Translations under genes and position numbers: made by a program
Notes under the pieces: model-generated
Seen by the model: the letters and a program-made list of their open reading frames with translations, nothing else
The model's database searches: none
Told to the model about the DNA's origin: nothing
In this document: positions 6,089 to 22,462 of the stretch, piece by piece
Numbering within the stretch: the stretch's first letter is position 1
Layout of the letters: every line of letters starts with the position of its first letter
Assembly (NCBI GenBank): GCA_963843575.1
Contig: CAWJKZ010000021.1
Coordinates: 192,001 to 256,000, forward strand
Direction of reading: 5' to 3'
From: an uncultured Acidobacteriota bacterium
GTDB lineage: Bacteria > Acidobacteriota > UBA6911
Length of the DNA: 64,000 bases

Positions 6089-7570
6089 ATGAGCGAGCTT
6101 CCCTTGGCCCTGCAGCAGCGGCTCAGATCATGCCGGACACTGCCGAGCATCCCGGCGGTTGTCTTGGAGGTGCTGGACCTCTGCCAGCGCGACGATGTGG
6201 CCATACAGGAGGTGGCCAGAGTGCTGGCGCGCGACCCGGCGCTCGCCGCGAAGGTGCTGACGGTGGCGAATTCCGCCTGGTACGGGTTGCGTTCGCAGGT
6301 CACGACGCTGGACCGGGCGCTCGCCTTGCTCGGCATAAACGCGACGCTCAGCCTGGCGCTGAGCTTCTCGTTCGTGCGCGGACTGCGCGGGTCAGGGTGG
6401 GTGAGGTTTGATCATCAGGCCTACTGGCGCAGGTCGGCCATCGCAGCCACCGCCGCCAGGGTGATCGGCCGATACGAGTGCGACGCTACCCCGGATGAGC
6501 TCTTCCTTGCCGGTCTGCTGCAGGACATCGGCATGCTGGCGCTGAACGAAGCCATCCCGGAACTCTATGACCCGATCGTTGCCGAGGCGAAGGGCGACCA
6601 TCAAAAGCTGATGGTGCTCGAACGCGAGAAACTCGGGGCCGACCACGCAGCGAGCGGCGAGTGGCTGCTTCGGAACTGGAACCTGCCCGAGAAGCTGCAA
6701 AGGGCCGTTGCCGGCAGCCATCAGGCGGAGCCGGGTGCCGAGGCGGACTACTTCGCCCTCAGCGTCGCGCTGGCGGGCAGGGTGGCGGAGATCTGGACCC
6801 ACCCCGACAACACCGCGGCCGCCGACGCGCGCGAGGCTTCCATACGCCTGCTCGACATCCCAGCCGGGCGGTTCGACGAGATGCTGGGCGAGATCGCCCG
6901 GGCCCTGCCGGAGGTCACCGCAAACCTCGACATCGACATCGGGGGCGAGGAAGAGATCACCCGGCTGCTGGATCGGGCGCGCGAGGCGCTTGTGTCCCTG
7001 GTCATGCAGGCACAGCAGCAGGTACGCGAAATCCGCGAGCAGTCGCAGAACGACGGGCTCACCGGCCTGTGCAACCGCGCCCACCTCGATGAGGTCATGG
7101 CGGCCCGGTTTCTGGAGGCGCAGCGGATGGCCCAGCCGTTGAGCGTCGTCTTCATTGACCTCGACCACTTCAAGAGCATCAACGACGCCTACGGACACCA
7201 GGCGGGAGACCAGGTGCTGATCTCCGTCGCCGATGTCCTCCGGAATTGTCTTCGGTCCCGCGACGTGGTCGGCCGCTACGGCGGCGAGGAGTTCGTCGGC
7301 GTGCTCCCGAACACCCCGGCCGCGGCGGCCACGCTCGTGGCCGAACGCCTGCGTGCAGCGGTGGCGGCGCGGCGCCATCGGATCGGGGAAGGGCTGGACG
7401 TGGAGGTGACGATATCCGTGGGCTGCGCGACCGGCTCGCCCGAGAAGCCATTTCCCTCCAGCAAAGAATTGCTCGAGGCCGCAGATCGCTGCCTTTACGC
7501 CGCCAAGGGGCTTGGGCGCAACCGCGTGGTGGTGCTCAAAGATCTCTCCACGGCCGTGAACCAGGACTGA
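6089..7570 (+). CDS. HDOD-GGDEF diguanylate cyclase
   Basis: HDOD (LPSIP..DPALAAKVL..ANS, LLQDIG) plus DGLTGL, DLDHFKSINDAYGH, RSRD I-site and RYGGEEF. Confidence 0.93.
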   Translation: MSELPLALQQRLRSCRTLPSIPAVVLEVLDLCQRDDVAIQEVARVLARDPALAAKVLTVANSAWYGLRSQVTTLDRALALLGINATLSLALSFSFVRGLRGSGWVRFDHQAYWRRSAIAATAARVIGRYECDATPDELFLAGLLQDIGMLALNEAIPELYDPIVAEAKGDHQKLMVLEREKLGADHAASGEWLLRNWNLPEKLQRAVAGSHQAEPGAEADYFALSVALAGRVAEIWTHPDNTAAADAREASIRLLDIPAGRFDEMLGEIARALPEVTANLDIDIGGEEEITRLLDRAREALVSLVMQAQQQVREIREQSQNDGLTGLCNRAHLDEVMAARFLEAQRMAQPLSVVFIDLDHFKSINDAYGHQAGDQVLISVADVLRNCLRSRDVVGRYGGEEFVGVLPNTPAAAATLVAERLRAAVAARRHRIGEGLDVEVTISVGCATGSPEKPFPSSKELLEAADRCLYAAKGLGRNRVVVLKDLSTAVNQD

Positions 7571-7579
7571 CCCGCCGAA

Positions 7580-8362
7580 TCAGTCCCTCCGCCTTTCGGG
7601 CACCTTCAGAAGGCGTCGCAACTCGGACTCCAGTCCCGGTGCGCAGATGACGCAGTTCCCGGCGTCGATCCGTCCGGAACCGTCTCGTGCGAAAAAGGCG
7701 GCGCCGCATTCGCGCGAGATCACCCGGGCGGGCGCGTAGTCCCATTCCATGCCGCTGCCGCTCAGCCAGATGTCGGCCCTGCCCCGGGCCAGGGTCGCCA
7801 CGTCGTAGCATCCGCCGTAGCAGCGGACCGTCCAGCAGTTCCGGGTCAGGTGCCGGATCGCCTCCTCCGGCCATTGCCCCCAGGCCGAACTGAACCCGCT
7901 CACCATCAGGACCGCCTTGTCCAGTCTGGCGACCGTGGAGGCGGAGCAGGGCACCCCATTGCAGTAAGCGCCGCCCCCTGCGACGGCGTGATACAACTCG
8001 CCGAGGCAGGGGAAGTAGATGAGACCCAGCACGACCTCGCCCCCCTGCTGCAATGCGATCTGGACCGACCAGAAGGCGTTCCGCCGGACGAAATCCCGGG
8101 TACCGTCGATCGGATCCACCAGCCACCGCCGGTCCGACGAGGCCTTCCTGAAGGTGCCCTCCTCCCCGACGATGCCGTCGGCCGGGAAGGCGGCCGCCAG
8201 CGCGCCGCCGATCAGGGCCTCGCACTCCCTGTCGGCCTCCGTCACGGGGGAGCGGTCCGATTTCTCCTCGGCGGGGGTTTCACGGGCGAAATAGCTCAAC
8301 GCCAGCGCCCCGGCGTTGCGGGCGATGTCCTGTGCACGATCGAGTTCTGTCTGATACGGCAT
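7580..8362 (-). CDS. Inositol monophosphatase family protein (HisN-like)
   Basis: SPVTEADRECE, GEE, WLVDPIDGT, WDYAP. Confidence 0.9.
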   Translation of the reverse strand: MPYQTELDRAQDIARNAGALALSYFARETPAEEKSDRSPVTEADRECEALIGGALAAAFPADGIVGEEGTFRKASSDRRWLVDPIDGTRDFVRRNAFWSVQIALQQGGEVVLGLIYFPCLGELYHAVAGGGAYCNGVPCSASTVARLDKAVLMVSGFSSAWGQWPEEAIRHLTRNCWTVRCYGGCYDVATLARGRADIWLSGSGMEWDYAPARVISRECGAAFFARDGSGRIDAGNCVICAPGLESELRRLLKVPERRRD

Positions 8363-9415: not shown

Positions 9416-12010
9416 GTGAGGCTCACTTTTCGGAAGAAGGATCCTGAACCCGTTCACGCGCACCCCGAGCCTCCTTCGCGCCGCTTCTTCCGCTTCCGCG
9501 TCCCCGGCGGGCGCGAGATCCGCCTCTCCGGCACCGCGCTGGCCGCGTTTTTGATCGCGCTGCTGGCCGTGTTGTCCGTGTTGGGTGCGGGCACGTACCT
9601 CTACGTCCGCTTCGACAGGCTCATCGACGAGCTCCTTGCGGGCAACATCTACCAGAACACGTCGCGCGTCTTTGCCGCTCCCGGGAGAATTGCCGCGGGC
9701 GAGGTGCTCACGGCGGCTGAACTGGTTCACTATCTCCAGGGTGCCGGGTACGCAGACTCGCGGGATGGCGGCCCGCTCGGGCGCTACGCGTATGTCGGGG
9801 GTGCGCTGGAGATTCGACCGGGGAGCGGCTCGTGGTTCGCGGGGAAGAACGGCATCCGGGTCGAGTTCGCCGGCCGCCGTATCTCGCGCATCTCCAGCCT
9901 CGTTAATGGCGCCCGGCTCAACGCCGCCGAAATCGAGCCCGAGATGATCACGAGCCTTTTCGACGTGGCGCGCGAGAAGCGGCGACTCGTCCGGTTCGAA
10001 GATCTCCCGGCGGCGCTGGTCGACGCGGTCCTGTCGACGGAAGACCGCCGCTTCTTCAATCACCCCGGCCTGGACTTCTTCCGGGTGCTCGGGGCCGCCT
10101 GGGTGGATCTGCGCCGCGGCGAGAAAGCGCAGGGCGCCAGCACGATCACGATGCAGGTCGCGCGCAGCTTCTTTTTCACTTCGCGCCGGGAATGGGGCCG
10201 CAAGCTGCGCGAGACCGTCATGGCCCTGCTGCTGGAGCAACGCTTCAACAAGAAGCAGATCTTCGAGCTGTACGCCAACCAGATCTACCTGGGGAACCGC
10301 GCCAGCTTCGCAATCCGCGGTTTCGGCGAGGCGGCGATGGCCTATTTCGGAAAGGACGTCCAGCGGCTGGATTTGGCAGAATGCGCCTTCCTGGCCGGTA
10401 TCATCAGGGCGCCCAACCGATACTCGTCGGCCGAACGCAGGCCGGAACGGGCCGCCGAGGCTCGCGACCGGGTGCTCGCCCGGATGGAGGAGAACGGCAA
10501 GCTGCGGCCCGGAGACGCCAAGGTGGCTCGCAGGGCTCCGCTGCGCATTGTCACGAGCGCCACGGTCGGCAACTCGGCCGGGTATTTCGTGGATTTGGTG
10601 AAAGACGACCTCCTGGACCGCTATTCGGAGAACGAACTCATCTCCGAAAGCTACCGGATCTACACGACCTTCGACTACGACCTTCAGCGCGTGGCGGCGC
10701 AAGCCGTGGAGTGGGGGATGAAAAACGTCGATGCGCAGCTCGCGCGCAAGTACGACGCGTGGCGCCGGCAAGGGGCGGACGTTCCCGCGGCTCAGGTGGC
10801 GCTGGTCGTGATCGACCCGTCGACCGGGGAAGTCCGAGCCCTGGTCGGGGGCCGCGACTACGCCCGCAGCCAGCTCGACCGCGCCCTCGCGAAACGTCAG
10901 CCGGGCTCCGTGTTCAAGCCGTTTGTCTATGCTGCGGCCTTCGAGAGCGCCATCGACGGCCTTACCCCGCTGTTCACGCCGGCGAGCACCGTGGTAGACG
11001 AGCCGACGACCTTCGACTTCAAAGGGACCCCGTATGCGCCCGACAACTTCGGGGAGGAGTTCCGCGGGACGGTCAGCCTCCGCGACGCGCTGACGTATTC
11101 CCTCAACGTCGCCACGGTCAAGGTTGCGGAGGCGGTCGGGTACAGGCGCGTGGTCGGTGTGGCGAGGCGGCTCGGGCTTCCCCCGGACCTGCAGCCCACC
11201 CCCGCCGTAGCGCTCGGCGCCTATGAGATGACGCCGCTCGAGGTCGCGGCGGGCTACACCGTGTTCGCCAACGAGGGGACGCGCTGCGAACCGGTCTTCA
11301 TCCGCACGGTGCTCGGACGGGACGGCGTCGCGCTCGAACAGGAGGGGTTGCACCGCAAGGCGGTGCTCGACGGCCGGGTGGCCTACCTGGTCACCAGCAT
11401 CCTGGAGGACGTTGTCGACCGGGGCACGGGGGCCGGGGTCCGGGCCCGGGGCTTCCGGGCTCCAGCCGCCGGCAAAACCGGGACGTCTCGCGATGGCTGG
11501 TTTGCCGGGTACACCTCCAACCTCCTGTGCGTCGTCTGGGTCGGTTTCGACGACAACCGGGAGCTCGGTCTTACCGGGTCGGTTTCCGCTGCGCCCATCT
11601 GGGCCGAGTTCATGCGCCGCGCGACGGCGCTCCCGCGCTACCGCAACACCCAGCCATTCACCCGGCCGGACGGCGTCGTGTTCGAAACCATCGACCCTGA
11701 GTCGCAGGAACTCGCGACCGCGGCCTGCCCCTCCGTCCGCCAGGAAGTTTTCATCGCCGGCACCGAGCCGACCGAAACGTGCCCGCTGCACCCGGAGGAG
11801 TCGCCGGAAAACATCCCCCCGATCTCGTGGTTGTCTAAAATCCTGGGGCGCGGCCACGAGGATGCTGCGCGGGAGCAGGCCGCGCAACCCGAGAAGCCCA
11901 AGGCCGAAAAAAGAAAGAGAGGATTCTTCAAGCGACTCTTCGGCATCGGCAACGACCGCGAGGAGGGCCCTCCCGCAGAAAAGGGCGGGGCGCAAGCGGG
12001 GCCCGGATGA
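9416..12010 (+). CDS. Class A penicillin-binding protein (PBP1B-like transglycosylase/transpeptidase)
   Basis: EDRRFFNH, QGASTITMQ, RKLRE, YANQIYLG; SVFK, SLN, KTG. Confidence 0.95.
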   Translation: MRLTFRKKDPEPVHAHPEPPSRRFFRFRVPGGREIRLSGTALAAFLIALLAVLSVLGAGTYLYVRFDRLIDELLAGNIYQNTSRVFAAPGRIAAGEVLTAAELVHYLQGAGYADSRDGGPLGRYAYVGGALEIRPGSGSWFAGKNGIRVEFAGRRISRISSLVNGARLNAAEIEPEMITSLFDVAREKRRLVRFEDLPAALVDAVLSTEDRRFFNHPGLDFFRVLGAAWVDLRRGEKAQGASTITMQVARSFFFTSRREWGRKLRETVMALLLEQRFNKKQIFELYANQIYLGNRASFAIRGFGEAAMAYFGKDVQRLDLAECAFLAGIIRAPNRYSSAERRPERAAEARDRVLARMEENGKLRPGDAKVARRAPLRIVTSATVGNSAGYFVDLVKDDLLDRYSENELISESYRIYTTFDYDLQRVAAQAVEWGMKNVDAQLARKYDAWRRQGADVPAAQVALVVIDPSTGEVRALVGGRDYARSQLDRALAKRQPGSVFKPFVYAAAFESAIDGLTPLFTPASTVVDEPTTFDFKGTPYAPDNFGEEFRGTVSLRDALTYSLNVATVKVAEAVGYRRVVGVARRLGLPPDLQPTPAVALGAYEMTPLEVAAGYTVFANEGTRCEPVFIRTVLGRDGVALEQEGLHRKAVLDGRVAYLVTSILEDVVDRGTGAGVRARGFRAPAAGKTGTSRDGWFAGYTSNLLCVVWVGFDDNRELGLTGSVSAAPIWAEFMRRATALPRYRNTQPFTRPDGVVFETIDPESQELATAACPSVRQEVFIAGTEPTETCPLHPEESPENIPPISWLSKILGRGHEDAAREQAAQPEKPKAEKRKRGFFKRLFGIGNDREEGPPAEKGGAQAGPG

Positions 12011-12145: not shown

Positions 12146-14530
12146 CTACTTGCGCATTTCGACCACCGTGGCGCCGCCGCCCCCTTTTTCGGGTGCGGCA
12201 AGGGCGAAACGCTCGACCTGGGGATGGCCTTTGAGCAGCTGCGCGATCGCTCGGCGCAGGATCCCCTTGCCATGGCCGTGGATGATGCGGACAGTGTCCG
12301 CCCCGGCGACAAACGCCTCGTCGAGAAACTTGTCGACCCGGTCGGTCGCCTCGTCGGCCGTCATGCCGATGACGTTGGCCTCGCGCTCAAACTCCTCGTC
12401 GATGTTGACGTCGGGCCCCGAGGCGTGAAATCCGGGGCGCGGCGCTGCGGTGCCGGCCGCCGGTTGAAGCGGGACGATTTCTTCCGGCCTGAGGCGGAAT
12501 TTCAACGAACCCACCAGTACGGTGCAGGTGTCGTCCTGCGTCGAATCGACCACCCCTTCCTTGCCGAGCGACGGAATCCGCACCCGGGTCCCCTCGCGGA
12601 GGTCCGCGACGTGAAAGGTGGGCGCCGCGGGCACGCCCGCGCCGGTGTCGGCGCCGGGCCCCTGTTTCAGCCGCTCTGCGGTGCGGCGCAGTTCGGCTGA
12701 GCGGCTGGCTGCGGCCTTGCTGAGGCGCTGGGCTTCGACCCGGTCCTTCAGGTCGCGGACGAGACGCTCGCTTTGCGCGGTGAAGCCGGCGATCACGCGG
12801 GCGAGTTCCTGCTCGAATTCGCGGTGCCTTTCGGCCTCGCGGCGGGCGAACTCCAGATCGAGCCGGGCGTATTCCCGCGCCGCCGCCTCACGCTCCTGCT
12901 CCAGGGCGGCGCGCAACTGTTCCTGGTCGTCGACGGAGGCCTTCAGCTTCCTGAGGTAGGCGCCGGCCTCGGTGTGCGCGGGATCGATACGGGCCTTGGC
13001 CTCGTCGAGGATGACCGGCGGGATGTTCATGCGGCGGGCGATCTCGAGCCCTGCCGATGCGCCGGCCACCCCGACCATCAGCCTGTAGGTCGGCCGCAGC
13101 GTGCGCTCGTCGAACTCCACCGACGCGTTCAGCACGCCCTCGGCCTGCGCCGCCCAGATTTTGAGACCCGAGTAGTGGGTGGTGGCGACCGTGGTGGCCC
13201 CGGCACGGCGGAAGAAATCGACGATGGCCACGGCCAGCGCCGCCCCCTCGTCCGGGTCGGTCCCGGTCCCGACCTCGTCCAGCAGCAGCAGCGCCGGCGG
13301 GGCGACGCGCTCGGCCATGTCGGCGATGTTGCGCATGTGCGCCGTGAAGGTCGACAGGTTGGCCGCGATCGACTGCTGGTCGCCGATGTCGGCAAACACC
13401 TGGTCGAAAACCGGGAGCACCGCCTCGCAGGCGGGCACGTGCAGACCCATTTGCGCCATCAGGACGGCAAGCCCCACCGTCTTGAGCACCACGGTCTTTC
13501 CCCCGGCATTCGGCCCGCTGATGACGACGACCTGGTGTGACTCGTCGAGGTCCAGCGTGATGGGGACCGCGGTCGCCCCGGAGACCCGCAGGGCGCGCTC
13601 GAGCAGAACATGGCGGACATCGGCGAGGCGCAGCGCCGTGCCTTGGGCCAGCCGCGGCCGCACGCAGCGGAACTCGGCGGAAAGTCTCCCTTTTGCCTGG
13701 GAGAAGTCCACCAGCGCGACGGCGTCCCGGACAGCGGCAATCTCGGCGGCGTGCAGCCGGAGGGCCTCGCTGATGGAGAAGAGAATGCGGGCAATCTCCG
13801 CCTCCTCCTGCTCGCGCAGCCGCACGAGCTCGTTGTTCTGCTCGATGGCCGCAAGGGGTTCGACGAAAGTCGTCTGCCCGCTGGAAGACAGGCCGTGCAC
13901 CACACCCGGGACCTGGTGGCGCGCGTCGGTGCGGATCGGGATGACGAAGCGGCCGTTACGAAACGTGACGAGATCGTCCTGGACTGCCCGCGTCTGCGCC
14001 TTGAGGATGGAGTCCAGGCTTCGAAAGATGCGCGTGCGGGCTTCCCCGAGCTCGCGCCGTATCGCCCTGAGCTCGGGGCTCGCGTTCTCGTCGATCTCTC
14101 CCCCGGGAAGGATCTTTCCCCGGATCGAGCCGAGCAGCCGCCGCAGATCGGGGATGCTGCCGGAGAGACGGGACAGCTCGGGGTAGAGTTCGAGCGCCTC
14201 GGCGCCCCGGAACTGCTCGCGCAGGCCGAGCCCGACCGAGACCAGCCGCTCCAGCTGGAGTATCTGCAGCGGTTCGAGGCTCGTGCCTTCGATCTGCAGC
14301 TTGGCCAGGGCCGCTTCCGGGTCCTCGATGCCGGCGAACCCGAATCGTTCGCCGGAGTTCAGGTAGCGCGCGCACTCGGTGGTGAGCTCCTGCCCCAGCT
14401 CGATTTCAGCCCGATCGGACGACGGCCGCTGCGCCGCGACGAGCCGGCGGCCGAGCGGCGTCTGGGCGTGCCCGGCCAGCAAATCGAGGAGAGAGTGCAG
14501 CTCGAGCGTGGAAAAGGTGCGTTGGTCCAT
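12146..14530 (-). CDS. mutS2: MutS2 with C-terminal Smr domain
   Basis: ISGPNAGGKT, ADIGDQQSI..LSTF, LLDEVGTGTDP, TTHY, IIHGHGKGILR, GGGGAT. Confidence 0.96.
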   Translation of the reverse strand: MDQRTFSTLELHSLLDLLAGHAQTPLGRRLVAAQRPSSDRAEIELGQELTTECARYLNSGERFGFAGIEDPEAALAKLQIEGTSLEPLQILQLERLVSVGLGLREQFRGAEALELYPELSRLSGSIPDLRRLLGSIRGKILPGGEIDENASPELRAIRRELGEARTRIFRSLDSILKAQTRAVQDDLVTFRNGRFVIPIRTDARHQVPGVVHGLSSSGQTTFVEPLAAIEQNNELVRLREQEEAEIARILFSISEALRLHAAEIAAVRDAVALVDFSQAKGRLSAEFRCVRPRLAQGTALRLADVRHVLLERALRVSGATAVPITLDLDESHQVVVISGPNAGGKTVVLKTVGLAVLMAQMGLHVPACEAVLPVFDQVFADIGDQQSIAANLSTFTAHMRNIADMAERVAPPALLLLDEVGTGTDPDEGAALAVAIVDFFRRAGATTVATTHYSGLKIWAAQAEGVLNASVEFDERTLRPTYRLMVGVAGASAGLEIARRMNIPPVILDEAKARIDPAHTEAGAYLRKLKASVDDQEQLRAALEQEREAAAREYARLDLEFARREAERHREFEQELARVIAGFTAQSERLVRDLKDRVEAQRLSKAAASRSAELRRTAERLKQGPGADTGAGVPAAPTFHVADLREGTRVRIPSLGKEGVVDSTQDDTCTVLVGSLKFRLRPEEIVPLQPAAGTAAPRPGFHASGPDVNIDEEFEREANVIGMTADEATDRVDKFLDEAFVAGADTVRIIHGHGKGILRRAIAQLLKGHPQVERFALAAPEKGGGGATVVEMRK

Positions 14531-14570
14531 GCGGAACCTTACTTAGAAACGGGGCGGGCGGTCAAGTGTG

Positions 14571-14654
14571 TGGAGTGCAGCGCCTCGGCGGCCTCGGCGC
14601 CGCTTTCTCGGTGCGTCCTACGGCCGAATTACCCGGCGCCTCGGCGCCACACCG
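14571..14654 (+). repeat. REP-like intergenic repeat family A, copy 2
   Basis: Same core and orientation as 12046-12130. Confidence 0.8.
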
Positions 14655-14774
14655 AACCTCGCCGTGCCCTTACTGCTCGACGCGCGGCGCCGTCGAGCCG
14701 CCGCGCTCCTGGCCTGCCTTGCTCCTTGTGCAAGAAAGCGTTAGTCTGTGACAACAAAGTGTGGAGCCGCCGAT

Positions 14775-16148
14775 ATGCCTGCGAGCAGGAAAATCGTGAT
14801 CATGGGGGCCGCGGGGAGGGATTTTCACAACTTCAACCTCTGTTTCCGCAATAACCCGGCGTACCGTGTCGAAGCATTCACCGCTTTTCAGATCCCGAAC
14901 ATCTCGGGCCGCACCTATCCGCCGGGACTCGCCGGCGAGGGGTATCCGGAGGGGATCCCGATCTATCCCGAAGCCGATCTCCCGGGGCTGATCCGGGACA
15001 AGGGGATCCAGGAGGTGGTCTTCGCCTACAGCGACGTCTCGTACGCCGACCTCATGCACAAGGCGTCGCTGGTCAACGCCGCCGGCGCGGATTTCCGGCT
15101 CTTGGGCGCGGCGGGCACGATGCTCCGGGCGGGGAAGCCGGTGGTGGCGGTCTGCGCCGTCCGGACGGGATGCGGGAAGAGCCAGACGTCGCGGCGCGTT
15201 GCGGAGCTGCTGCGTGGACGCGGCAAATCGGTGGTGGTCGTGCGCCACCCCATGCCGTACGGCGACCTGAACGCGCAACGCTGCCAGCGTTACGAGGCGC
15301 TCGCGGACCTGGACCGGCACCGCTGCACGATCGAGGAGCGCGAAGAATACGAGTCCCACATCCTGCAGGGAAACATCCTCTACGCGGGGGTGGACTACGA
15401 GGAAATCCTGCGCAGCGCCGAAAAGGAGGCCGACATCATTCTCTGGGACGGCGGCAACAACGACCTGCCGTTCTTCCGCCCGGACCTGCACATCGTGCTG
15501 GTGGACCCGCACCGACCCGGTCACGAGCTGCGCTACTACCCGGGGGAGACCAACCTGCGGATGGCGGATGTGGTGATCGTGAGCAAGTCGGGGAGCGCGA
15601 CGGCGGCGGGTGTGGAGGAGGTGACCGCGAACGCTAGAGGCGCGAACCCGCGGGCCCTGTTGATCCGCGCCGACTCGATCCTGCACGTCCAGGACGAGAC
15701 GGCTATTCGCGGCAGGCGAGTGCTGGTGGTCGAGGACGGCCCGACCCTGACGCACGGCGAGATGACTTACGGCGCGGCGCACCTGGCGGCGCGGCAGTTC
15801 GGAGCGGCCGAGATCGTTGACCCGCGGCCCTACGCGGTGCGCTCGATGCGTGAGACCTTCGCTCGGTATCCCCACCTGGTCGACGTGCTCCCGGCCATGG
15901 GATATGGCGACGAGCAGGTCCGGGACCTCCAGGAGTCCATCGACGCCGTCCCGTGCGACCTCGTGCTGGTCGGCACCCCGCTCGACCTGGGGCGGCTGAT
16001 CGAGACCCGACATCCGATGCTGCGCGTGACCTACAGCCTCGACGCGGTTGCGTCGGAAGCGCTGGACCGGGTGCTGGGACAGTTCCTATCCAGTCCGTTG
16101 GAGACAAGAGGCGACCATGCGGAAAAAGGACTTTCTCTCCATCCGTGA
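14775..16148 (+). CDS. arcE: P-loop protein of the cyclic 2,3-diphosphoglycerate synthetase/'GTPase' family; probable arginine synthetase (ArcE-like)
   Basis: IMGAAGRDFHNFN, AVRTGCGKSQTSR, RHPMPYG, CTIEEREEYE, WDGGNND, VVEDGPTLTHG, LPAMGY; first gene before OTCase and carbamate kinase. Confidence 0.75.
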   Translation: MPASRKIVIMGAAGRDFHNFNLCFRNNPAYRVEAFTAFQIPNISGRTYPPGLAGEGYPEGIPIYPEADLPGLIRDKGIQEVVFAYSDVSYADLMHKASLVNAAGADFRLLGAAGTMLRAGKPVVAVCAVRTGCGKSQTSRRVAELLRGRGKSVVVVRHPMPYGDLNAQRCQRYEALADLDRHRCTIEEREEYESHILQGNILYAGVDYEEILRSAEKEADIILWDGGNNDLPFFRPDLHIVLVDPHRPGHELRYYPGETNLRMADVVIVSKSGSATAAGVEEVTANARGANPRALLIRADSILHVQDETAIRGRRVLVVEDGPTLTHGEMTYGAAHLAARQFGAAEIVDPRPYAVRSMRETFARYPHLVDVLPAMGYGDEQVRDLQESIDAVPCDLVLVGTPLDLGRLIETRHPMLRVTYSLDAVASEALDRVLGQFLSSPLETRGDHAEKGLSLHP

Positions 16149-17034
16149 TCAGTCCACGGACGAGCTGCGCGACACGCTCATCAACGCCTTTGCGGTCAAA
16201 TCGGATCCGCTGAAGTACTCGGATGCGCTCAGGGGGAAGGCTCTGGCCATGATTTTCGAGAAGCCTTCCCTGCGGACTCGGGTGACCTTCGATGTCGGCA
16301 TACACCAGTTGGGCGGCTTTTCCGTCTACCTCTCGCCCGGCGAGATCAACCTGGGCAAGCGCGAACCGGTGGGCGACGTGGCCCGCAACCTCGAGCGCAT
16401 GGTGCAGGGGATCATGATCCGCACGTTCAGCCACCGGATCGTGGAGGAAATGGCGGCGTGCGCGTCGGTCCCTGTGATCAACGGCCTCACCGACTTCAGC
16501 CACCCCTGCCAGGCGGTGGCCGACTACATGACCATGATCGAGTGCAAGGGGGAACTGAGCGGCCTGAAGCTGGCCTATCTCGGGGACGGCAACAACGTGG
16601 CCAACTCGCTGATGTTCGGCGCTGCCCTGCTGGGTGTGCACATCGTCGTCGCCGCCCCGCGCGGCTACGAGCCGAGGACAGAGGTGCTCGAGTGGGCGCG
16701 CGCGCACGCACCGGCCTCGGGGAGCAGGATCGAGGTCACGGACGATCCCGAACAAGCCGCCGCCGGCGCCGACGTGCTCTACACGGACGTCTGGGCGAGC
16801 ATGGGCCAGGAGGACGAGGCGGCGGAGCGGCGGCGGAGCTTTCAGCCATACCAGGTCTCCGAGCGCCTGTTCGAGCTGGCCAGGCCCGACGCGATCTTCA
16901 TGCACTGCCTCCCCGCTCATCGGGACGAAGAAGTCAGCGCGGGGGTGATCGACTCGCCCCGATCCGTCGTCTTCCAGCAGGCGGAAAACCGGCTCCACGC
17001 GCAGAAGGCGATCATGCTGGGCGTCATGGGTTGA
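16117..17034 (+). CDS. argF: Ornithine carbamoyltransferase
   Basis: FEKPSLRT, HPCQ, GDGNN, DVWASMG, FMHCLP, AENRLH. Confidence 0.95.
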   Translation: MRKKDFLSIRDQSTDELRDTLINAFAVKSDPLKYSDALRGKALAMIFEKPSLRTRVTFDVGIHQLGGFSVYLSPGEINLGKREPVGDVARNLERMVQGIMIRTFSHRIVEEMAACASVPVINGLTDFSHPCQAVADYMTMIECKGELSGLKLAYLGDGNNVANSLMFGAALLGVHIVVAAPRGYEPRTEVLEWARAHAPASGSRIEVTDDPEQAAAGADVLYTDVWASMGQEDEAAERRRSFQPYQVSERLFELARPDAIFMHCLPAHRDEEVSAGVIDSPRSVVFQQAENRLHAQKAIMLGVMG

Positions 17035-17043
17035 GGTGAATCC

Positions 17044-18006
17044 GTGGCTAGATCCGCGCTGGTCGCAGTAGGCGGAAATTCGCTCGTCCGTGCGGGAGAG
17101 CAGGGGGCGGTCCGTGAGCAGGTTGCCAACGCGCGCCGCATCAGCCGTGCGATCGCCGCGCTCCTGCGGGAAGGGCTCGACGTGGTCGTCACGCACGGCA
17201 ACGGGCCGCAGGTGGGGGCCGCACTGCTCCGCTCGGAAAGAGCCTCCGGCCAGGTGTACGAACAGGGCCTCGACGTGTGCGTCGCCGCCACCCAGGGCGA
17301 GATAGGCTACATCCTTCAGCAGGCGCTCGGGTACGAAATCCGCCGCCAGGGGATCGACAGGCCGGTGACCACCATCCTGACCCAGGTCGTGGTGGGCGTG
17401 GACGACCCCGCCTTCCTGCACCCCACGAAACCCGTCGGGCCCTTTTACTCGCGCACCGCGGCCGAGGAAAAGGCGCGCCGGCTGGGGTGGATCATGGTCG
17501 AGGACGCCGCCCGGGGCTACCGGCGCGTGGTCCCCTCGCCGCGCCCCCTGGAGATCGTCGAAGAGGACGTGATCCGCAGGATGCTCTCAATGGGGATGCT
17601 GGTGATCGCGCTGGGCGGGGGAGGTATCCCGGTGGTGCGCGAAGAGGGCGCGCTCCGCGGGGTCGACGCCGTGATCGACAAGGACCGTGCCTCCCTGCTG
17701 CTCGGCTCGCGCCTGCCGGTCGATCTCCTCGTCTTCGCCACCGACGCCGACCGCGTCTACCTCGACTACCGGAAGCCCGGCCAGCGGCCGCTGACCCGCG
17801 TGTTTGCGCGGCAGATGCGCGCCTACCTGGCCGCCGGCCAGTTCCCGCCCGGGAACATGGGGCCCAAGATCGAAGCGGCGCTCGAATTCCTGGCGCTCGG
17901 GGGGAAGGAAGCCATCGTCGCCTCCCACGAGCACCTCGTGGCCGCCGTCCACGGCGAGGCCGGCACCCGGATCCTGCCCGACAACTCCGAGGAGCGCAAT
18001 CCATGA
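17044..18006 (+). CDS. arcC: Carbamate kinase
   Basis: VAVGGNSL, THGNGPQVG, PTKPVGPFY, RRVVPSPRP, GGGGIPV, VIDKD, MGPKI. Confidence 0.96.
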   Translation: MARSALVAVGGNSLVRAGEQGAVREQVANARRISRAIAALLREGLDVVVTHGNGPQVGAALLRSERASGQVYEQGLDVCVAATQGEIGYILQQALGYEIRRQGIDRPVTTILTQVVVGVDDPAFLHPTKPVGPFYSRTAAEEKARRLGWIMVEDAARGYRRVVPSPRPLEIVEEDVIRRMLSMGMLVIALGGGGIPVVREEGALRGVDAVIDKDRASLLLGSRLPVDLLVFATDADRVYLDYRKPGQRPLTRVFARQMRAYLAAGQFPPGNMGPKIEAALEFLALGGKEAIVASHEHLVAAVHGEAGTRILPDNSEERNP

Positions 18007-18917
18007 AGCTCCGTCACGTCATTCAGTCTCAACAGTTCACCGTACCCCTCCTGATGGAGCTCTTCGACCGCACCCGCGCCATGGAGCGCGTCGTGCGCCG
18101 GGGCGGGACGCAGGATTACCAGAACAAAATCATGGCGACCCTGTTCTACCAACCCTCGACGCGCACGCGCTTCTCGTTCGAAGCCGCGATGTACCGCCTG
18201 GGGGGAAAAGTGTTTTCCACCGAGCAGGCCCGCTACTTCTCCTCGGAGGTCGAGGGAGAGCAGCTGGAAGACACGATCCGCACGATCTCCGGCTACTCCG
18301 ATGTCATCGTGATCCGCCACTCTGAGGTGGGGGGAGCGGCGCGCGCGGCGGCTGTGTCACGGGTGCCGGTGATCAACGCCGGCGACGCCAACGGCGGGCA
18401 GCACCCCACGCAGGCCCTGCTGGACCTTTACACGATATTCCGCGAACGCCGCACGCTCGACGGACTCAGCATCGCCATCATCGGGGACCTCGAACGCGGC
18501 CGCACCGCCCGCTCCCTGGCCTACCTGTTGAGCAAATTCGACCGAGTGAAGATCTGGTTCGTAAGCCCGCCCGAGCTTCAGATGGCGCGCGACATCCTGG
18601 ACTACCTCGAGGAAAACGACGTGTGGTACGGGCTCGAACCCGACATGGACCGCGTGCTCGGGCACGTCGACGTCGTCTACCTGACCCAGATCCGCCCGGC
18701 CCGCCTCAAGGAGCAGCAGGGGGCGCTCAAGTACACGATCGATGCCTCGGTACTTCGTTGTCTGCGGCCCGACGCCCTGATCCTGCACCCCCTCCCGCGG
18801 ACCGCGGAACTGGACAAGGCTGTCGACGAAGACCCCCGCGCGTGCTACTTCCGGCAGGCGGCCAACGGCCTGTTCGTGCGGATGGCGCTGCTGACAATGG
18901 TGCTCGAGGACGCCTGA
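18003..18917 (+). CDS. Aspartate carbamoyltransferase-like protein (plant-type), with substituted Asp-binding residues
   Basis: [24 protein letters not shown] and HPLPR are present, but KGE is EGE and TRIQ is TQIR; ATGA overlap with arcC. Confidence 0.85.
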
Positions 18918-18972
18918 GGCTTCCGGCCAACGGCCCCCTCCCAGCGCACCCGGTGTTGGAGAGGAGAATGCC

Positions 18973-20193
18973 ATGGAAGAGGAACTCAAGGCTGCAAAGC
19001 CTGCGACCACTGCGGACGCCCTCATCGACCTCGAAAACGAGTACGGCGCACATAATTACAACCCGCTGGACGTCGTCGTGCACCGGGCGTCGGGTGTCTG
19101 GGTGTACGACGTCGAGGGGAAGCGTTACCTCGACTGCCTGGCCGCCTATTCCGCCGTGAACCAGGGACACTGCCATCCGGCCATCCTGCACGCGGCCGAG
19201 GAGCAGATGCGCCTCGTGACCCTGACCTCGCGCGCCTTCCGCAACGACCAGCTTCCGCTGCTGTGCCGGGACCTGCACGAACTCACCGGCATGGAGATGG
19301 CGTTGCCCATGAACTCCGGGGCGGAGGCGGTCGAAACGGCGCTGAAGGCGGCGCGCAAGTGGGGCTATACGTGCAAAGGGATCCCTCCGGGGAAGGCGGA
19401 GATCGTCGTCTGCGCCAACAACTTTCACGGCCGCACGATTTCGCTCGTGAGTTTTTCCACCGACGAACAGTACCGGCGCGGCTTCGAACCGTTCACCCCC
19501 GGTTTCAGGACGGTGCCGTACGGAGACAGCGACGCACTCCGCCGCGCACTGACTCCCAACACCTGTGCCTTCCTGGTGGAGCCCATCCAGGGGGAGGCGG
19601 GAGTCGTCATCCCGCCGGACGGTTACCTCGAGGCGTGCTCCAGGCTGTGCAGGGAAAACGACGTGCTGTTCGTGGCCGACGAGATCCAATCGGGGCTGGG
19701 GCGCGCCGGAAAGCTCTTCGCCTATTTGTACGAGGACGTCGAGCCCGACGTCCTGATCATAGGGAAAGCGCTCGCCGGCGGGTTCTACCCCGTCTCGGCC
19801 GTGCTGGCCTCCAAGGAGGTGCTCGGCGTCTTCGGGCCCGGCGACCACGGCAGCACGTTCGGCGGCAACCCCCTCGCCTGCGCCATCGCCCGGGCCGCGC
19901 TCCGCGTACTGCAGGAGGAGAAGCTCGTCGAGCGCTCCGCCGAACACGGCCGGTACTTCCTCGGGCTCCTGCGGACGCTGCGCTCCGCCGACATCGTCGA
20001 GGTAAGGGGCCGCGGCCTCTGGATCGGCCTCGAGCTCAAGCGTGGAGCACGCGGCTGCTGCGAGATCCTGAAGGAGCGGGGGATCCTCTGCAAGGAAACC
20101 CACGAACGCGTGATCCGGGTCGCGCCCCCCCTCGTGATCACGCGTGAGGAGATCGACTGGGCCTTCGAAAGGTTCCGCTCCGTCCTCGAATAG
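18973..20193 (+). CDS. rocD: Ornithine--oxo-acid transaminase
   Basis: [72 protein letters not shown]. Confidence 0.96.
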
Positions 20194-20269
20194 CCCCGCG
20201 GACCTCACCATTTGGAGTGCGGCGGCTCGACGCCGACACTAGCCCATGTCTGCGGGCTTTCGCGCTATT

Positions 20270-20410
20270 CGCGTGCGTATGTGTTCGTGGCGTCGCTCGC
20301 GTTTCTGCTGGATCGAGCGTTGGAGAAAAAACTGCAATCGGCCGGCTCGGACATCTCATCGCGGGAGGGAGGCTTGGCAGTCGCTGCGGACAGTCCGGAC
20401 ACAGGCTACG
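20270..20410 (+). mobile_element. Degraded transposase C-terminal fragment, IS1634-like
   Basis: RAYVFVASLAFLLDRALEKKLQSAG..S continuing in another frame as REAWQSLRTVR; resembles my recollection of IS1634-family C-termini; no ends visible. Confidence 0.55.
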
Positions 20411-20554
20411 CCTGTCACCAGGTCCAGATCCGCGCGCAACCGCGAAAATCCGCGTCCGGGAACGTCTGTCAGCGCACTTCCGAACACCTGACCTGTACCA
20501 GGCCAACCTGCACTGGGCCGCTTACGCTCCACGTCCAGCGGTGGACCGACGAGC

Positions 20555-20563
20555 TGATATAAT
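20555..20563 (+). promoter_or_regulatory. Extended -10 promoter for qor
   Basis: TGaTATAAT 27 bp upstream of the ATG at 20591. Confidence 0.55.
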
Positions 20564-20590
20564 GTTCCCGGTTATCTCGATGGGAGCCAC

Positions 20591-21562
20591 ATGATGAAAG
20601 CGATACGCGTGCATGAAACGGGCGGTCCCGAGGCACTCCAACTCGAAGAGATTGCCGTGCCGGCACCGGGCCCCGGCCAGGTACGGGTGCAAGTCAAGGC
20701 GATCGGTGTGAACTTCATCGACATCTACCACCGCAGCGGGCTCTACAAGCTCCAGCTTCCGTTCATCCCGGGTTCCGAGGCGGCCGGGATCGTTGATGCC
20801 GTCGGCGAAGGCGTCAAGACAGTGGCGGCGGGGGAGCGGGTGGCCTACGCCATGAATCCGGGCGCCTACGCCGAGTACGCGCTCGTCAACGACTGGCAGC
20901 TCGTGAAGCTCCCGGACGACGTCGATTTCCGCACGGCGGCCGCGCTGATGCTGCAAGGCATGACCTCGCACTACCTCATGTACTCCACGTTTCCACTCCG
21001 CAGCGGGGAAGTCGCCCTGGTTCACGCCGCGGCCGGCGGGGTGGGGCTGCTGCTGCTGCAGATCGGCAAGATGCTCGGAGCCACCCTGATCGGCACGGTT
21101 TCGACGCAGGGGAAACGGGAGCTGGCCCTGGAGGCGGGGGCCGACCACGTCGTCCTGTACGAAGAGAACGACTTCGAGGCGGAAGTGAAGAAGCTGACCG
21201 ACGGCCACGGTGTCCACGTCGTGTACGATTCGGTCGGGCGGACCACGTTCGACCGCAGCCTGCGTTGTCTGCGGCCGCGCGGCATGCTGGTCCTTTTCGG
21301 ACAATCCAGCGGGCCCGTGCCCCCCATCGATCCCGGCGTGCTGGCGGCGCGCGGCTCGGTCTACCTGACCCGGCCGAGCCTGGCCCATTACACGGCCAGC
21401 CCGGAGGAGATCGGCTGGCGCGCCGGCGACGTGCTGCGGTGGGTCGCCGAAGGACGGCTCAAGGTGCGCATCGACTCCAACTATCCGCTGGGCGAGGCGG
21501 CGGCGGCTCACCGCGCCCTCGCGGGCCGGAAGACCAGCGGCAAGATTATCCTCCAGCCCTGA
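20591..21562 (+). CDS. qor: NADPH:quinone oxidoreductase (zeta-crystallin family)
   Basis: GGPEAL, IGVNFIDIYHRSG, HAAAGGVG, VYDSVG, FGQSSG, TSGKIIL. Confidence 0.93.
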   Translation: MMKAIRVHETGGPEALQLEEIAVPAPGPGQVRVQVKAIGVNFIDIYHRSGLYKLQLPFIPGSEAAGIVDAVGEGVKTVAAGERVAYAMNPGAYAEYALVNDWQLVKLPDDVDFRTAAALMLQGMTSHYLMYSTFPLRSGEVALVHAAAGGVGLLLLQIGKMLGATLIGTVSTQGKRELALEAGADHVVLYEENDFEAEVKKLTDGHGVHVVYDSVGRTTFDRSLRCLRPRGMLVLFGQSSGPVPPIDPGVLAARGSVYLTRPSLAHYTASPEEIGWRAGDVLRWVAEGRLKVRIDSNYPLGEAAAAHRALAGRKTSGKIILQP

Positions 21563-21715: not shown

Positions 21716-22462
21716 TCAGTGCAGCCTGAAGATCACGGTCACGATCGCGAGCACCGGGACCGGCTCGCCGTTGAGCAGCGTAGGAGAATATTTCCACTGG
21801 CGTACTGCCTCGACCGCCGCGTCGCTCAGCAGCGGGTGGCCGCCCACTACCCGGACGGCCACGACGTTTCCGTCGTCGTCCACCGCGACTTCGAGTGTCA
21901 CTTCACCTGAAACCCGCGCCCTGCGGGCCAGTTCGGGGTATGCCGGCTCGACCCTGCGGAGCAGGCGGGACTCGAGCACTTTCCCGCCGATGCGCATCGC
22001 CTCCGTCGTCCGGTGCACCGGGGGTGGAGGCGGCGGCCGCAGCGGAGCAGCCGGCCGGCCGCCGGGCAGCAGCTCCGCCGGAATGCCCGGGAATCCGCCC
22101 GGGCCGAACGGTTGCCCCGGCACGCCGAATTCCGCCGCGGGCAGTTCCTCCGGCGGGAGTGGATCGAGGACGATGCCGTCCGGTATGATCGTCGGGGTTA
22201 AGAGCCCCAGCCTGATGGTGGCTGCGCCACCGCGGACCTGAGCCGTCCCAACCGGAGGGCGAGGCGGCTCGCGCGCGGGCGGCGTGGCTGGGGTGGCAAT
22301 AAGGAACGTGAGCAGGCCTGCGCCCGGGATGACGTTCAGCCAGAACAGCGGCACCAGCACCAGCGCGCCGATCCCGACGATGTGAAGCACCAGCGAGACA
22401 AGAAGACTCGAGGCGCGGCGCAAGAAGCTGCGCTGTTCGCCGAACTCGGCCGATTCGAACAT
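21716..22462 (-). CDS. TonB family energy transducer
   Basis: N-terminal TM with SLVLH, Pro-rich linker, PAYPELARRARVSGEV..AVRQWKYSPTLLNG. Confidence 0.9.
   Translation of the reverse strand: MFESAEFGEQRSFLRRASSLLVSLVLHIVGIGALVLVPLFWLNVIPGAGLLTFLIATPATPPAREPPRPPVGTAQVRGGAATIRLGLLTPTIIPDGIVLDPLPPEELPAAEFGVPGQPFGPGGFPGIPAELLPGGRPAAPLRPPPPPPVHRTTEAMRIGGKVLESRLLRRVEPAYPELARRARVSGEVTLEVAVDDDGNVVAVRVVGGHPLLSDAAVEAVRQWKYSPTLLNGEPVPVLAIVTVIFRLH

Follow-up and report, generated by a model that had tools for sequence, protein, structure and literature searches.

The stretch of DNA analysed here, referred to as the window, comprises 64,000 nucleotides of an uncultured Acidobacteriota bacterium (assembly GCA_963843575.1, contig CAWJKZ010000021.1; G000:C21:192001-256000 in our numbering, from a genome of 6.68 Mb on 27 contigs that is 88% complete). 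At positions 14775-20193, it carries an operon of five genes that, in our judgement, likely encodes a pathway built around the arginine synthetase ArcE and forms an amphibolic node between arginine and carbamoyl phosphate. In this pathway, an ArcE-like P-loop protein would convert arginine, ADP and Pi to citrulline, ammonia and ATP, upon which ornithine carbamoyltransferase (OTC) would phosphorolyse citrulline to ornithine and carbamoyl phosphate. Carbamate kinase (CK) would then gain a second ATP from carbamoyl phosphate, for a predicted yield of two per arginine, and an ornithine--oxo-acid aminotransferase (OAT) of the RocD type would drain ornithine as glutamate semialdehyde. The same OTC would also supply citrulline to the products of argG and argH. 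The remaining gene, here called atcL, is predicted to encode a CK-coupled transcarbamylase of the aspartate carbamoyltransferase (ATCase) branch that lacks the aspartate signature.

The original prediction, made from the sequence alone, described five co-oriented, overlapping or tightly packed genes, and a listing of open reading frames (ORFs), scans against family models and inspection of the gene junctions found all five to be real, on the plus strand and at the positions given there:

14719..14747, plus strand: candidate promoter (TTGCTC, 17 nt, TAGTCT), weakly indicated by an upstream alignment in which a block of ~60 nt is shared with the same-genus relative G001

14775..16148, plus strand: arcE-like gene for a P-loop protein of 457 aa, starting at an ATG that GGAG precedes by 8 nt

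16114..17034, plus strand: OTC gene (NF001986, TIGR00658), with a 35-nt overlap with the arcE-like gene

17044..18006, plus strand: CK gene (NF009007), with a GTG start, following OTC after a gap of 9 nt

18003..18917, plus strand: atcL, for an ATCase-branch transcarbamylase (TIGR00670), overlapping the CK stop codon in ATGA

18973..20193, plus strand: RocD-type OAT gene (TIGR01885), following atcL after a gap of 55 nt

Three of the five products are readily assigned by family models. OTC scores 423.5 bits with NF001986 (cut-off 306) and 396.5 bits with TIGR00658 (cut-off 280.85), and its alignment shows the motifs DVWASMG (DxxxSMG) and HCLP. CK reaches 331.8 bits with NF009007 (cut-off 266) and 351.5 bits with TIGR00746, slightly below the cut-off of 358.25. 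The aminotransferase scores 519.4 bits with TIGR01885 (cut-off 378.4) and 364 bits with the argD model TIGR00707, under its cut-off of 410; by family assignment, it is a RocD-type ornithine aminotransferase rather than an argD product.

The first gene of the operon is the one on which the pathway hinges. Its product matches no Pfam or NCBIfam family, even at E 10, and yet has at least 8000 homolog clusters, with ~70% identity across phyla, which their sources name 'predicted GTPase' or 'cyclic 2,3-diphosphoglycerate synthase'; a protein atlas offers 'putative GTPase' only, with CobW on 25-36% of members. A similar history attaches to TK2200 of Thermococcus kodakarensis, formerly a 'hypothetical protein' with homologs called 'putative GTPases', which is now established as the arginine synthetase ArcE (Michimori et al. 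2024, PMC11032458). The reaction, Arg + ADP + Pi <-> Cit + NH3 + ATP, is reversible with a K of about 10 at 80 °C, and ArcE homologs occur widely among bacteria, Acidobacteria (Koribacter) and Caldisericum included, with some encoded near arcB and/or arcC (PMC11032458).

Several lines of evidence place the window's P-loop protein in this family. The best 79 arcE loci among species-representative genomes encode proteins 57-66% identical to it and come from many bacterial phyla as well as Thermoplasmata, Bathyarchaeia, Thorarchaeota and other archaea; in a tree of arcE-family sequences, bacterial and archaeal members are interleaved. The member from Caldisericum exile (P0357) aligns with the P-loop protein at 57% identity over 431 residues without gaps, and the text of PMC11032458 gives Caldisericum as an arcE holder, naming the genus and not the protein. 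The AlphaFold model (pLDDT 90.8) retrieves cyclic 2,3-diphosphoglycerate synthetase (cDPGS) first in Foldseek (E 1.6e-16, 13% identity; 13-15% in structural alignment), followed at ranks 3-8 by Aquifex LpxK (4EHX/4EHY, E 3e-8; 4EHY E 6.6e-8), and LpxK 4EHY is the structural neighbour described for TK2200p (PMC11032458). In keeping with the original prediction, which had put the protein in a 'GTPase/cDPGS-like' arginine synthetase family, sequence likeness and the modelled fold thus support membership in the T. kodakarensis ArcE family rather than among true cDPGS. A homolog search seeded with an archaeal member of the Aciduliprofundum type returned no Thermococcales protein among the 120 matches listed.

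Could the P-loop protein instead be a cDPG synthetase, or some GTPase with another function whose gene happens to lie beside arc genes? The public names suggest as much, cDPGS is the nearest solved structure, and no arc gene occurs in the fetched flank of 57/79 arcE loci. A grouping with true cDPGS had been named in advance as the outcome that would speak against an ArcE-like protein. What was found is a marginal similarity: Methanothermus fervidus cDPGS matches with a phmmer E of 0.0036 and 19.7 bits, across residues 217-399 only, and together with the 13-15% identity, this led us to reject a cDPGS identity. cDPGS has itself been treated as a distant relative of ArcE only, serving as an outgroup (PMC11032458), and cDPG is confined to hyperthermophilic methanogens (PMC10690619). 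Moreover, since the family holds ~60% identity across both domains and its characterised member is ArcE, one function is likely throughout, and the linkage with OTC, CK and OAT is recurrent. Taken together, a function other than arginine synthetase appears highly improbable.

The naming of the family deserves a remark of its own. NCBI lists P0064, P0114, P0242, P0357 and others, mesophilic bacteria included, as 'cyclic 2,3-diphosphoglycerate synthase' or 'GTPase', and this naming of ArcE-family proteins is probably a systematic misannotation. As a separate observation, two arcE paralogues lie 2-3 kb apart, with an OTC gene before the first, in metagenome-assembled genomes of a Symbiobacterium (L028, 8001-9296 and 11196-12512) and of a member of the Bacillota (L060, 6177-7481 and 9672-10979).

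The arrangement of the operon recurs well beyond the window. Among 40 relatives, arcE was found in 20 and close atcL orthologs in 12, all from the window's own family; these counts, like those for OTC and for the phylum below, include one unpublished genome (G034), on which no particular claim depends. The relatives' atcL orthologs are 74-91% identical to that of the window, apart from two fragments in G021 at 65% and 79%. All 11 fetched loci with atcL from these relatives show the order arcE-otc-ck-atcL, and OAT comes next in 6. A set of 80 atcL loci from metagenomes (71-76% identical) has CK immediately upstream in all 71 that can be judged, OTC in 44/45 and OAT downstream in 68/72. The commonest metagenomic order is otc-ck-atcL-oat-arcE, with the window's order in 6 loci, and arcE belongs to the cluster in 17 of the 21 loci whose flanks are long enough on either side. 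Because of the constant order in the relatives' loci and the linkage in the metagenomic loci, the gene arrangement is not due to chance. Among the loci examined (11/11 in relatives and 71/71 judgeable metagenomic ones), atcL was never seen beside arcE without CK. Of 301 genomes sampled evenly from the phylum, 6 contained close matches (E <= 1e-90), and one of these, G231 from another family, has the full module. Separately, one same-family relative (L109, G007:C21, 5875-9363) carries arcE-otc-oat with neither CK nor atcL in the cluster.

Across the 79 arcE loci, which span many phyla, the fetched flank holds CK and/or OTC in 22 cases and both in 12, many flanks being short; OAT (56% identical) was seen in one locus and an ATCase-like gene in none.

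The genome-wide inventory of arginine genes bears on the direction in which the pathway runs. As had been predicted, neither arcA nor arcD was found in the window, and the genome as a whole yields best scores of 31 bits against a cut-off of 489 for arcA and 80 bits against a cut-off of 591 for the arginine/ornithine antiporter model. The wider genome search that the original prediction had called for likewise returned no arginase-family gene and located argG and argH elsewhere in the genome. The genome further encodes an intact carB on C25, an argC-argB-argD-argJ cluster on C14, whose argD is separate from the OAT gene of the operon, and a canonical pyrR-pyrB pair (NF002032, 412 bits). Two of the genes are split in the assembly: argH (G000:C14:690059-691422) and a second carB copy (G000:C27:64828-67952) each fall into pieces in three reading frames, with no stop codon inside any matched piece, and these splits are frameshifts or assembly indels.

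No second OTC was detected by tblastn in the genome, and in six cluster-bearing relatives of 94-99% completeness (G004, G005, G006, G017, G021 and G023), the OTC of the cluster is likewise the only one above cut-off. As the sole OTC found, the enzyme of the operon must also make citrulline for argG and argH, which renders the operon amphibolic rather than purely catabolic. The original prediction of a 'catabolic operon' is therefore supported with an amendment: the catabolic direction is favoured, but the role cannot be exclusively catabolic. For organisms with ArcE plus argG and argH, ArcE is taken to run from arginine to citrulline (PMC11032458), and following the reasoning of these authors, the presence of argG and argH and the failure to find arcA and arginase favour the catabolic direction here, with the CK and OAT genes within the operon counting toward the same side.

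The opposite reading is that the module is mainly synthetic, with OAT making ornithine from glutamate semialdehyde, CK or carbamoyl-phosphate synthetase (CPS) providing carbamoyl phosphate, OTC making citrulline and ArcE forming arginine from citrulline, ammonia and ATP. Such a route would be independent of aspartate and suited to high ammonia, with atcL drawing carbamoyl phosphate for another product. The sole-copy OTC, seen here as well as in relatives of 97-99% completeness, would be expected under it, as would the order of most metagenomic loci, in which otc comes first and arcE last; ArcE is reversible and supports arginine synthesis from citrulline in vivo, and its discoverers raised a biosynthetic role for some bacteria (PMC11032458). 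However, they reserve that role for organisms without argG and argH (PMC11032458), and the window's genome has both along with carB and argCBDJ. The Ks for ammonia lies in the mM range, CK of T. kodakarensis could not supply carbamoyl phosphate (PMC13260591), and the aminotransferase is of the RocD type while a separate argD exists. We therefore consider a mainly synthetic module rather unlikely.

The fourth gene, atcL, calls for separate treatment. Its product scores 284 bits with the ATCase model TIGR00670 (cut-off 237) and 256.5 bits with NF002032, below the cut-off of 263, and its best solved relative is Arabidopsis PYRB (6YPO, 314 bits). In ATCases, the aspartate site involves R167, R229 and Q231, the last two of which bind aspartate's beta-carboxylate; the RxQxER motif of the 240s loop occurs in every known ATCase; and K84, contributed by the adjacent subunit, is the proposed catalytic proton acceptor (PMC4581275). 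With residue numbers in register with E. coli ATCase to residue 234, the carbamoyl-phosphate site is retained throughout 120 atcL orthologs (S52, R54, T55, R105, H134, Q137 and HPLP in 120/120; T53 in 117/120), and so is R167 (120/120). The rest of the ATCase signature is not. Residue 84 is K in a single ortholog; its place is taken by E in 82, Q in 17, A in 12, D in 3, S in 2 and V, P or H in 1 each; residue 231 is never Q, being R in 101, L in 13 and H in 5; and residue 229 is R in 37 and Q in 81. RxQxER occurs in 0/120 and is replaced by (Q/R)-I-(R/L/H)-P-x-R, which in the window reads QIRPAR, and the stretch from residue 231 to HPLP measures 30 residues against a mode of 34, leaving the 240s region ~4 residues shorter.

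A set of the 126 nearest sequences in the ATCase family was made up of representatives of clusters at 50% identity and the pyrB of the genome itself; 115 of them keep the K84-R167-R229-Q231 combination, and the atcL clade comprises one representative at 72% identity, with the next sequence at 57%. Judged by these residues, atcL does not encode an ordinary ATCase, its carbamoyl-phosphate site being intact and its aspartate signature lost. The 'extra carbamoyltransferase' of the original prediction can accordingly be kept as a transcarbamylase with an intact carbamoyl-phosphate site, but its likeness to ATCase does not extend to the signature of that enzyme. Two further readings were considered and discarded. 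An E50Q change is not diagnostic, as position 50 is Q in 59, E in 47 and S in 12 of the 120 orthologs and Q also in 16/126 of the nearest ATCase-family sequences. Ureidoglycine transcarbamylase (UGTCase) was rejected on the criterion of PMC4581275, HPLP being present in 120/120 rather than H(T/S)LP.

It is still conceivable that atcL encodes a working ATCase that diverts arginine-derived carbamoyl phosphate to pyrimidines, as ArcE and ArcB do in T. kodakarensis. The score above the TIGR00670 cut-off, the kinship with Arabidopsis PYRB and the retained carbamoyl-phosphate-site residues and R167 all agree with this, Q229/R231 might in principle stand in for R229/Q231, and there is the precedent of an archaeon in which the ArcE pathway feeds pyrimidine synthesis (PMC13260591). 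Yet it would have to function without RxQxER in any ortholog, with K84 in 1/120 and with a shortened 240s region, in a genome that already holds canonical pyrR-pyrB (412 bits) and carB, and atcL is found in 0/79 arcE clusters of other phyla. On balance, we doubt this explanation.

A different proposal would make the AtcL protein a non-catalytic partner, for instance a carbamoyl-phosphate-binding scaffold or a regulator of CK or OTC. That atcL always directly follows CK, its start codon often overlapping the CK stop, and that one metagenomic ORF fuses the two would suit such a role, as would the loss of K84 as the proposed proton acceptor (PMC4581275); channelling complexes of CK and OTC are reported for Pyrococcus (PMC6022934), and a distant CK-linked ATC-like gene in G243 also lacks R54 and the His of HPLP. 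Against this, the set of residues stabilising the tetrahedral intermediate (R105, H134, Q137 and HPLP) is invariant in 120/120, a better fit to an active enzyme, and a purely structural or regulatory protein is, in our estimation, improbable.

Two observations on the CK-atcL pairing may be recorded here. In P0142, a metagenomic sequence of 525 aa, CK and atcL are read as one fused ORF, in line with the overlap between the CK stop and the atcL start in the window. In G243, from another family of the phylum, the cluster at 3626-15657 of L215 (G243:C8:56000-72000) contains CK (6445-7404) and after it, overlapping by 4 nt, an ATC-like gene (7401-8324) of 53% identity whose carbamoyl-phosphate motif is changed, with SSLTR for STRTR and SPLP for HPLP. 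The cluster around this pair is of the ygeW type and also encodes two PALP enzymes, an M20 peptidase, an amidohydrolase, an Fe-S protein and a xanthine-dehydrogenase-like Mo enzyme.

Most likely, atcL encodes a lineage-specific, CK-coupled transcarbamylase for an amino or ureido compound. Catabolic transcarbamylase genes adjoin CK genes, and further catabolic members may exist (PMC6022934); atcL fits this adjacency criterion, although nothing in the module names its substrate. The flanks of ten long metagenomic loci, which hold housekeeping or variable genes (polA, CCA/poly(A) polymerase, sensor kinases, gamma-glutamyltranspeptidase), gave no clue to the substrate either. As a tentative proposal that we rate as possible and no higher, atcL may represent a fourth kind of catabolic transcarbamylase after those for ornithine, putrescine and ureidoglycine, phosphorolysing an N-carbamoyl compound and passing carbamoyl phosphate to the CK encoded upstream. 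Its substrate could then be a ureido compound formed by ArcE from a second guanidino substrate, and if so, the five-gene module would harvest ATP from two ureido substrates.

Several points weigh against an ArcE pathway operon acting as an amphibolic node. The assignment of the P-loop protein to the ArcE family relies on C. exile as a proxy together with fold and genomic context, and the searchable literature yielded no characterised bacterial ArcE. In the fetched flanks of 57/79 arcE loci, many of them short, there is neither CK nor OTC, and the ten long metagenomic loci revealed no transporter or regulator linked to the module. With the genome 88% complete, an arcA, an arginase or a second OTC may have escaped detection when this genome is taken by itself. 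The genome also holds a short ORF of ~250 aa from the ADI/DDAH superfamily (G000:C13:819744-820370, minus strand; L120:9730-10611), which scores 78.8 bits with PF02274 and is the best match of the arcA model; a guanidino compound might be its substrate, and it is a caveat to the statement that no arcA was found. Finally, with ArcE reversible and OTC present in a single copy, net arginine synthesis is possible.

Upstream of the operon lie genes for a class A penicillin-binding protein (9416-12010, plus strand) and mutS2 (12146-14530, minus strand), downstream those for an NADPH:quinone reductase (20591-21562, plus strand) and a TonB-family protein (21716-22462, minus strand), and none of the four is tied to arginine metabolism. 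A consensus promoter scan found 0 sites, terminator-like sites (6 versus 3.2 +/- 1.9 in shuffles) are not informative, and an Rfam scan of 14300-20700 gave a single chance-level match (mir-667, E 0.77). No RNA run was among the matching sequencing runs listed, and the DNA runs share at most 0.14 of the sampled words.

As to novelty, the statement that the five-gene version is not known to be described needs to be divided. ArcE in Acidobacteria and arcE beside arcB and arcC are already in print, whereas the conserved five-gene module with atcL appears to be new; literature searches of main texts found neither a conserved five-gene module embedding the sole OTC, related clusters possibly being shown in the supplements of the ArcE papers, nor a CK-coupled ATCase-branch transcarbamylase that fails the ATCase signature.

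Arginine synthetase has so far been characterised in one hyperthermophilic archaeon only, and here its family appears in a compact, widely recurring bacterial operon. The operon thus offers a clean system for asking if two ATP per arginine are gained by soil bacteria, and in what way one OTC can act in synthesis as well as in breakdown. atcL, for its part, is present in many soil and sediment metagenomes, annotated everywhere as ATCase, although it is tied to CK and fails the ATCase signature, and undiscovered catabolic transcarbamylases are an open question in reviews of the family (PMC4581275, PMC6022934). The analysis also flags the 'cDPG synthase' and 'GTPase' labels of ArcE-family proteins as a probable systematic misannotation.

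The closest known counterpart is the pathway of T. kodakarensis (ArcE TK2200, ArcB TK0871, ArcC TK2158 and OrnAT TK2101; PMC11032458, PMC13260591), whose three enzyme families recur here along with an ornithine aminotransferase, ArcE standing in place of arginine deiminase. As there, arcA was not found, and the ArcE proteins share their fold neighbours (LpxK-like P-loop proteins and, distantly, cDPGS). Unlike the T. kodakarensis genes, whose locus tags as cited lie apart, those of the window form one operon, and the host, a soil acidobacterium of mesophilic type, possesses CPS, argG and argH as well; its OTC is the sole copy and must be amphibolic, and an extra ATCase-branch transcarbamylase is encoded between CK and OAT. 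The arcABC/arcD operon of Pseudomonas aeruginosa and others resembles the present one in the co-transcription of OTC and CK and in the ATP obtained from carbamoyl phosphate, but the operon described here lacks arcA and arcD, and deimination would fall to a P-loop enzyme that conserves a further ATP. cDPGS of M. fervidus (8ORK/8ORU) is the nearest solved fold and the source of the family's public annotation, from which the P-loop protein differs in sequence as well as in genomic context and taxon range.

For atcL, two relatives invite comparison. The catalytic chain PyrB has the same fold family and length, and STRTR, R105, HPTQ, R167 and HPLP are kept; in atcL, however, residue 84 is typically E, Q or A, RxQxER is replaced and the 240s region is trimmed, and the gene follows CK rather than lying in a pyr operon, with a canonical pyrB elsewhere in the genome. 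UGTCase of Rubrobacter xylanophilus (PMC4581275) is likewise an ATCase-branch enzyme annotated as ATCase and belongs to a CK-coupled catabolic route. It differs from atcL in having H(T/S)LP and the equivalent of K84, where atcL has HPLP and lacks K84, and in a genomic context of purine rather than arginine metabolism.

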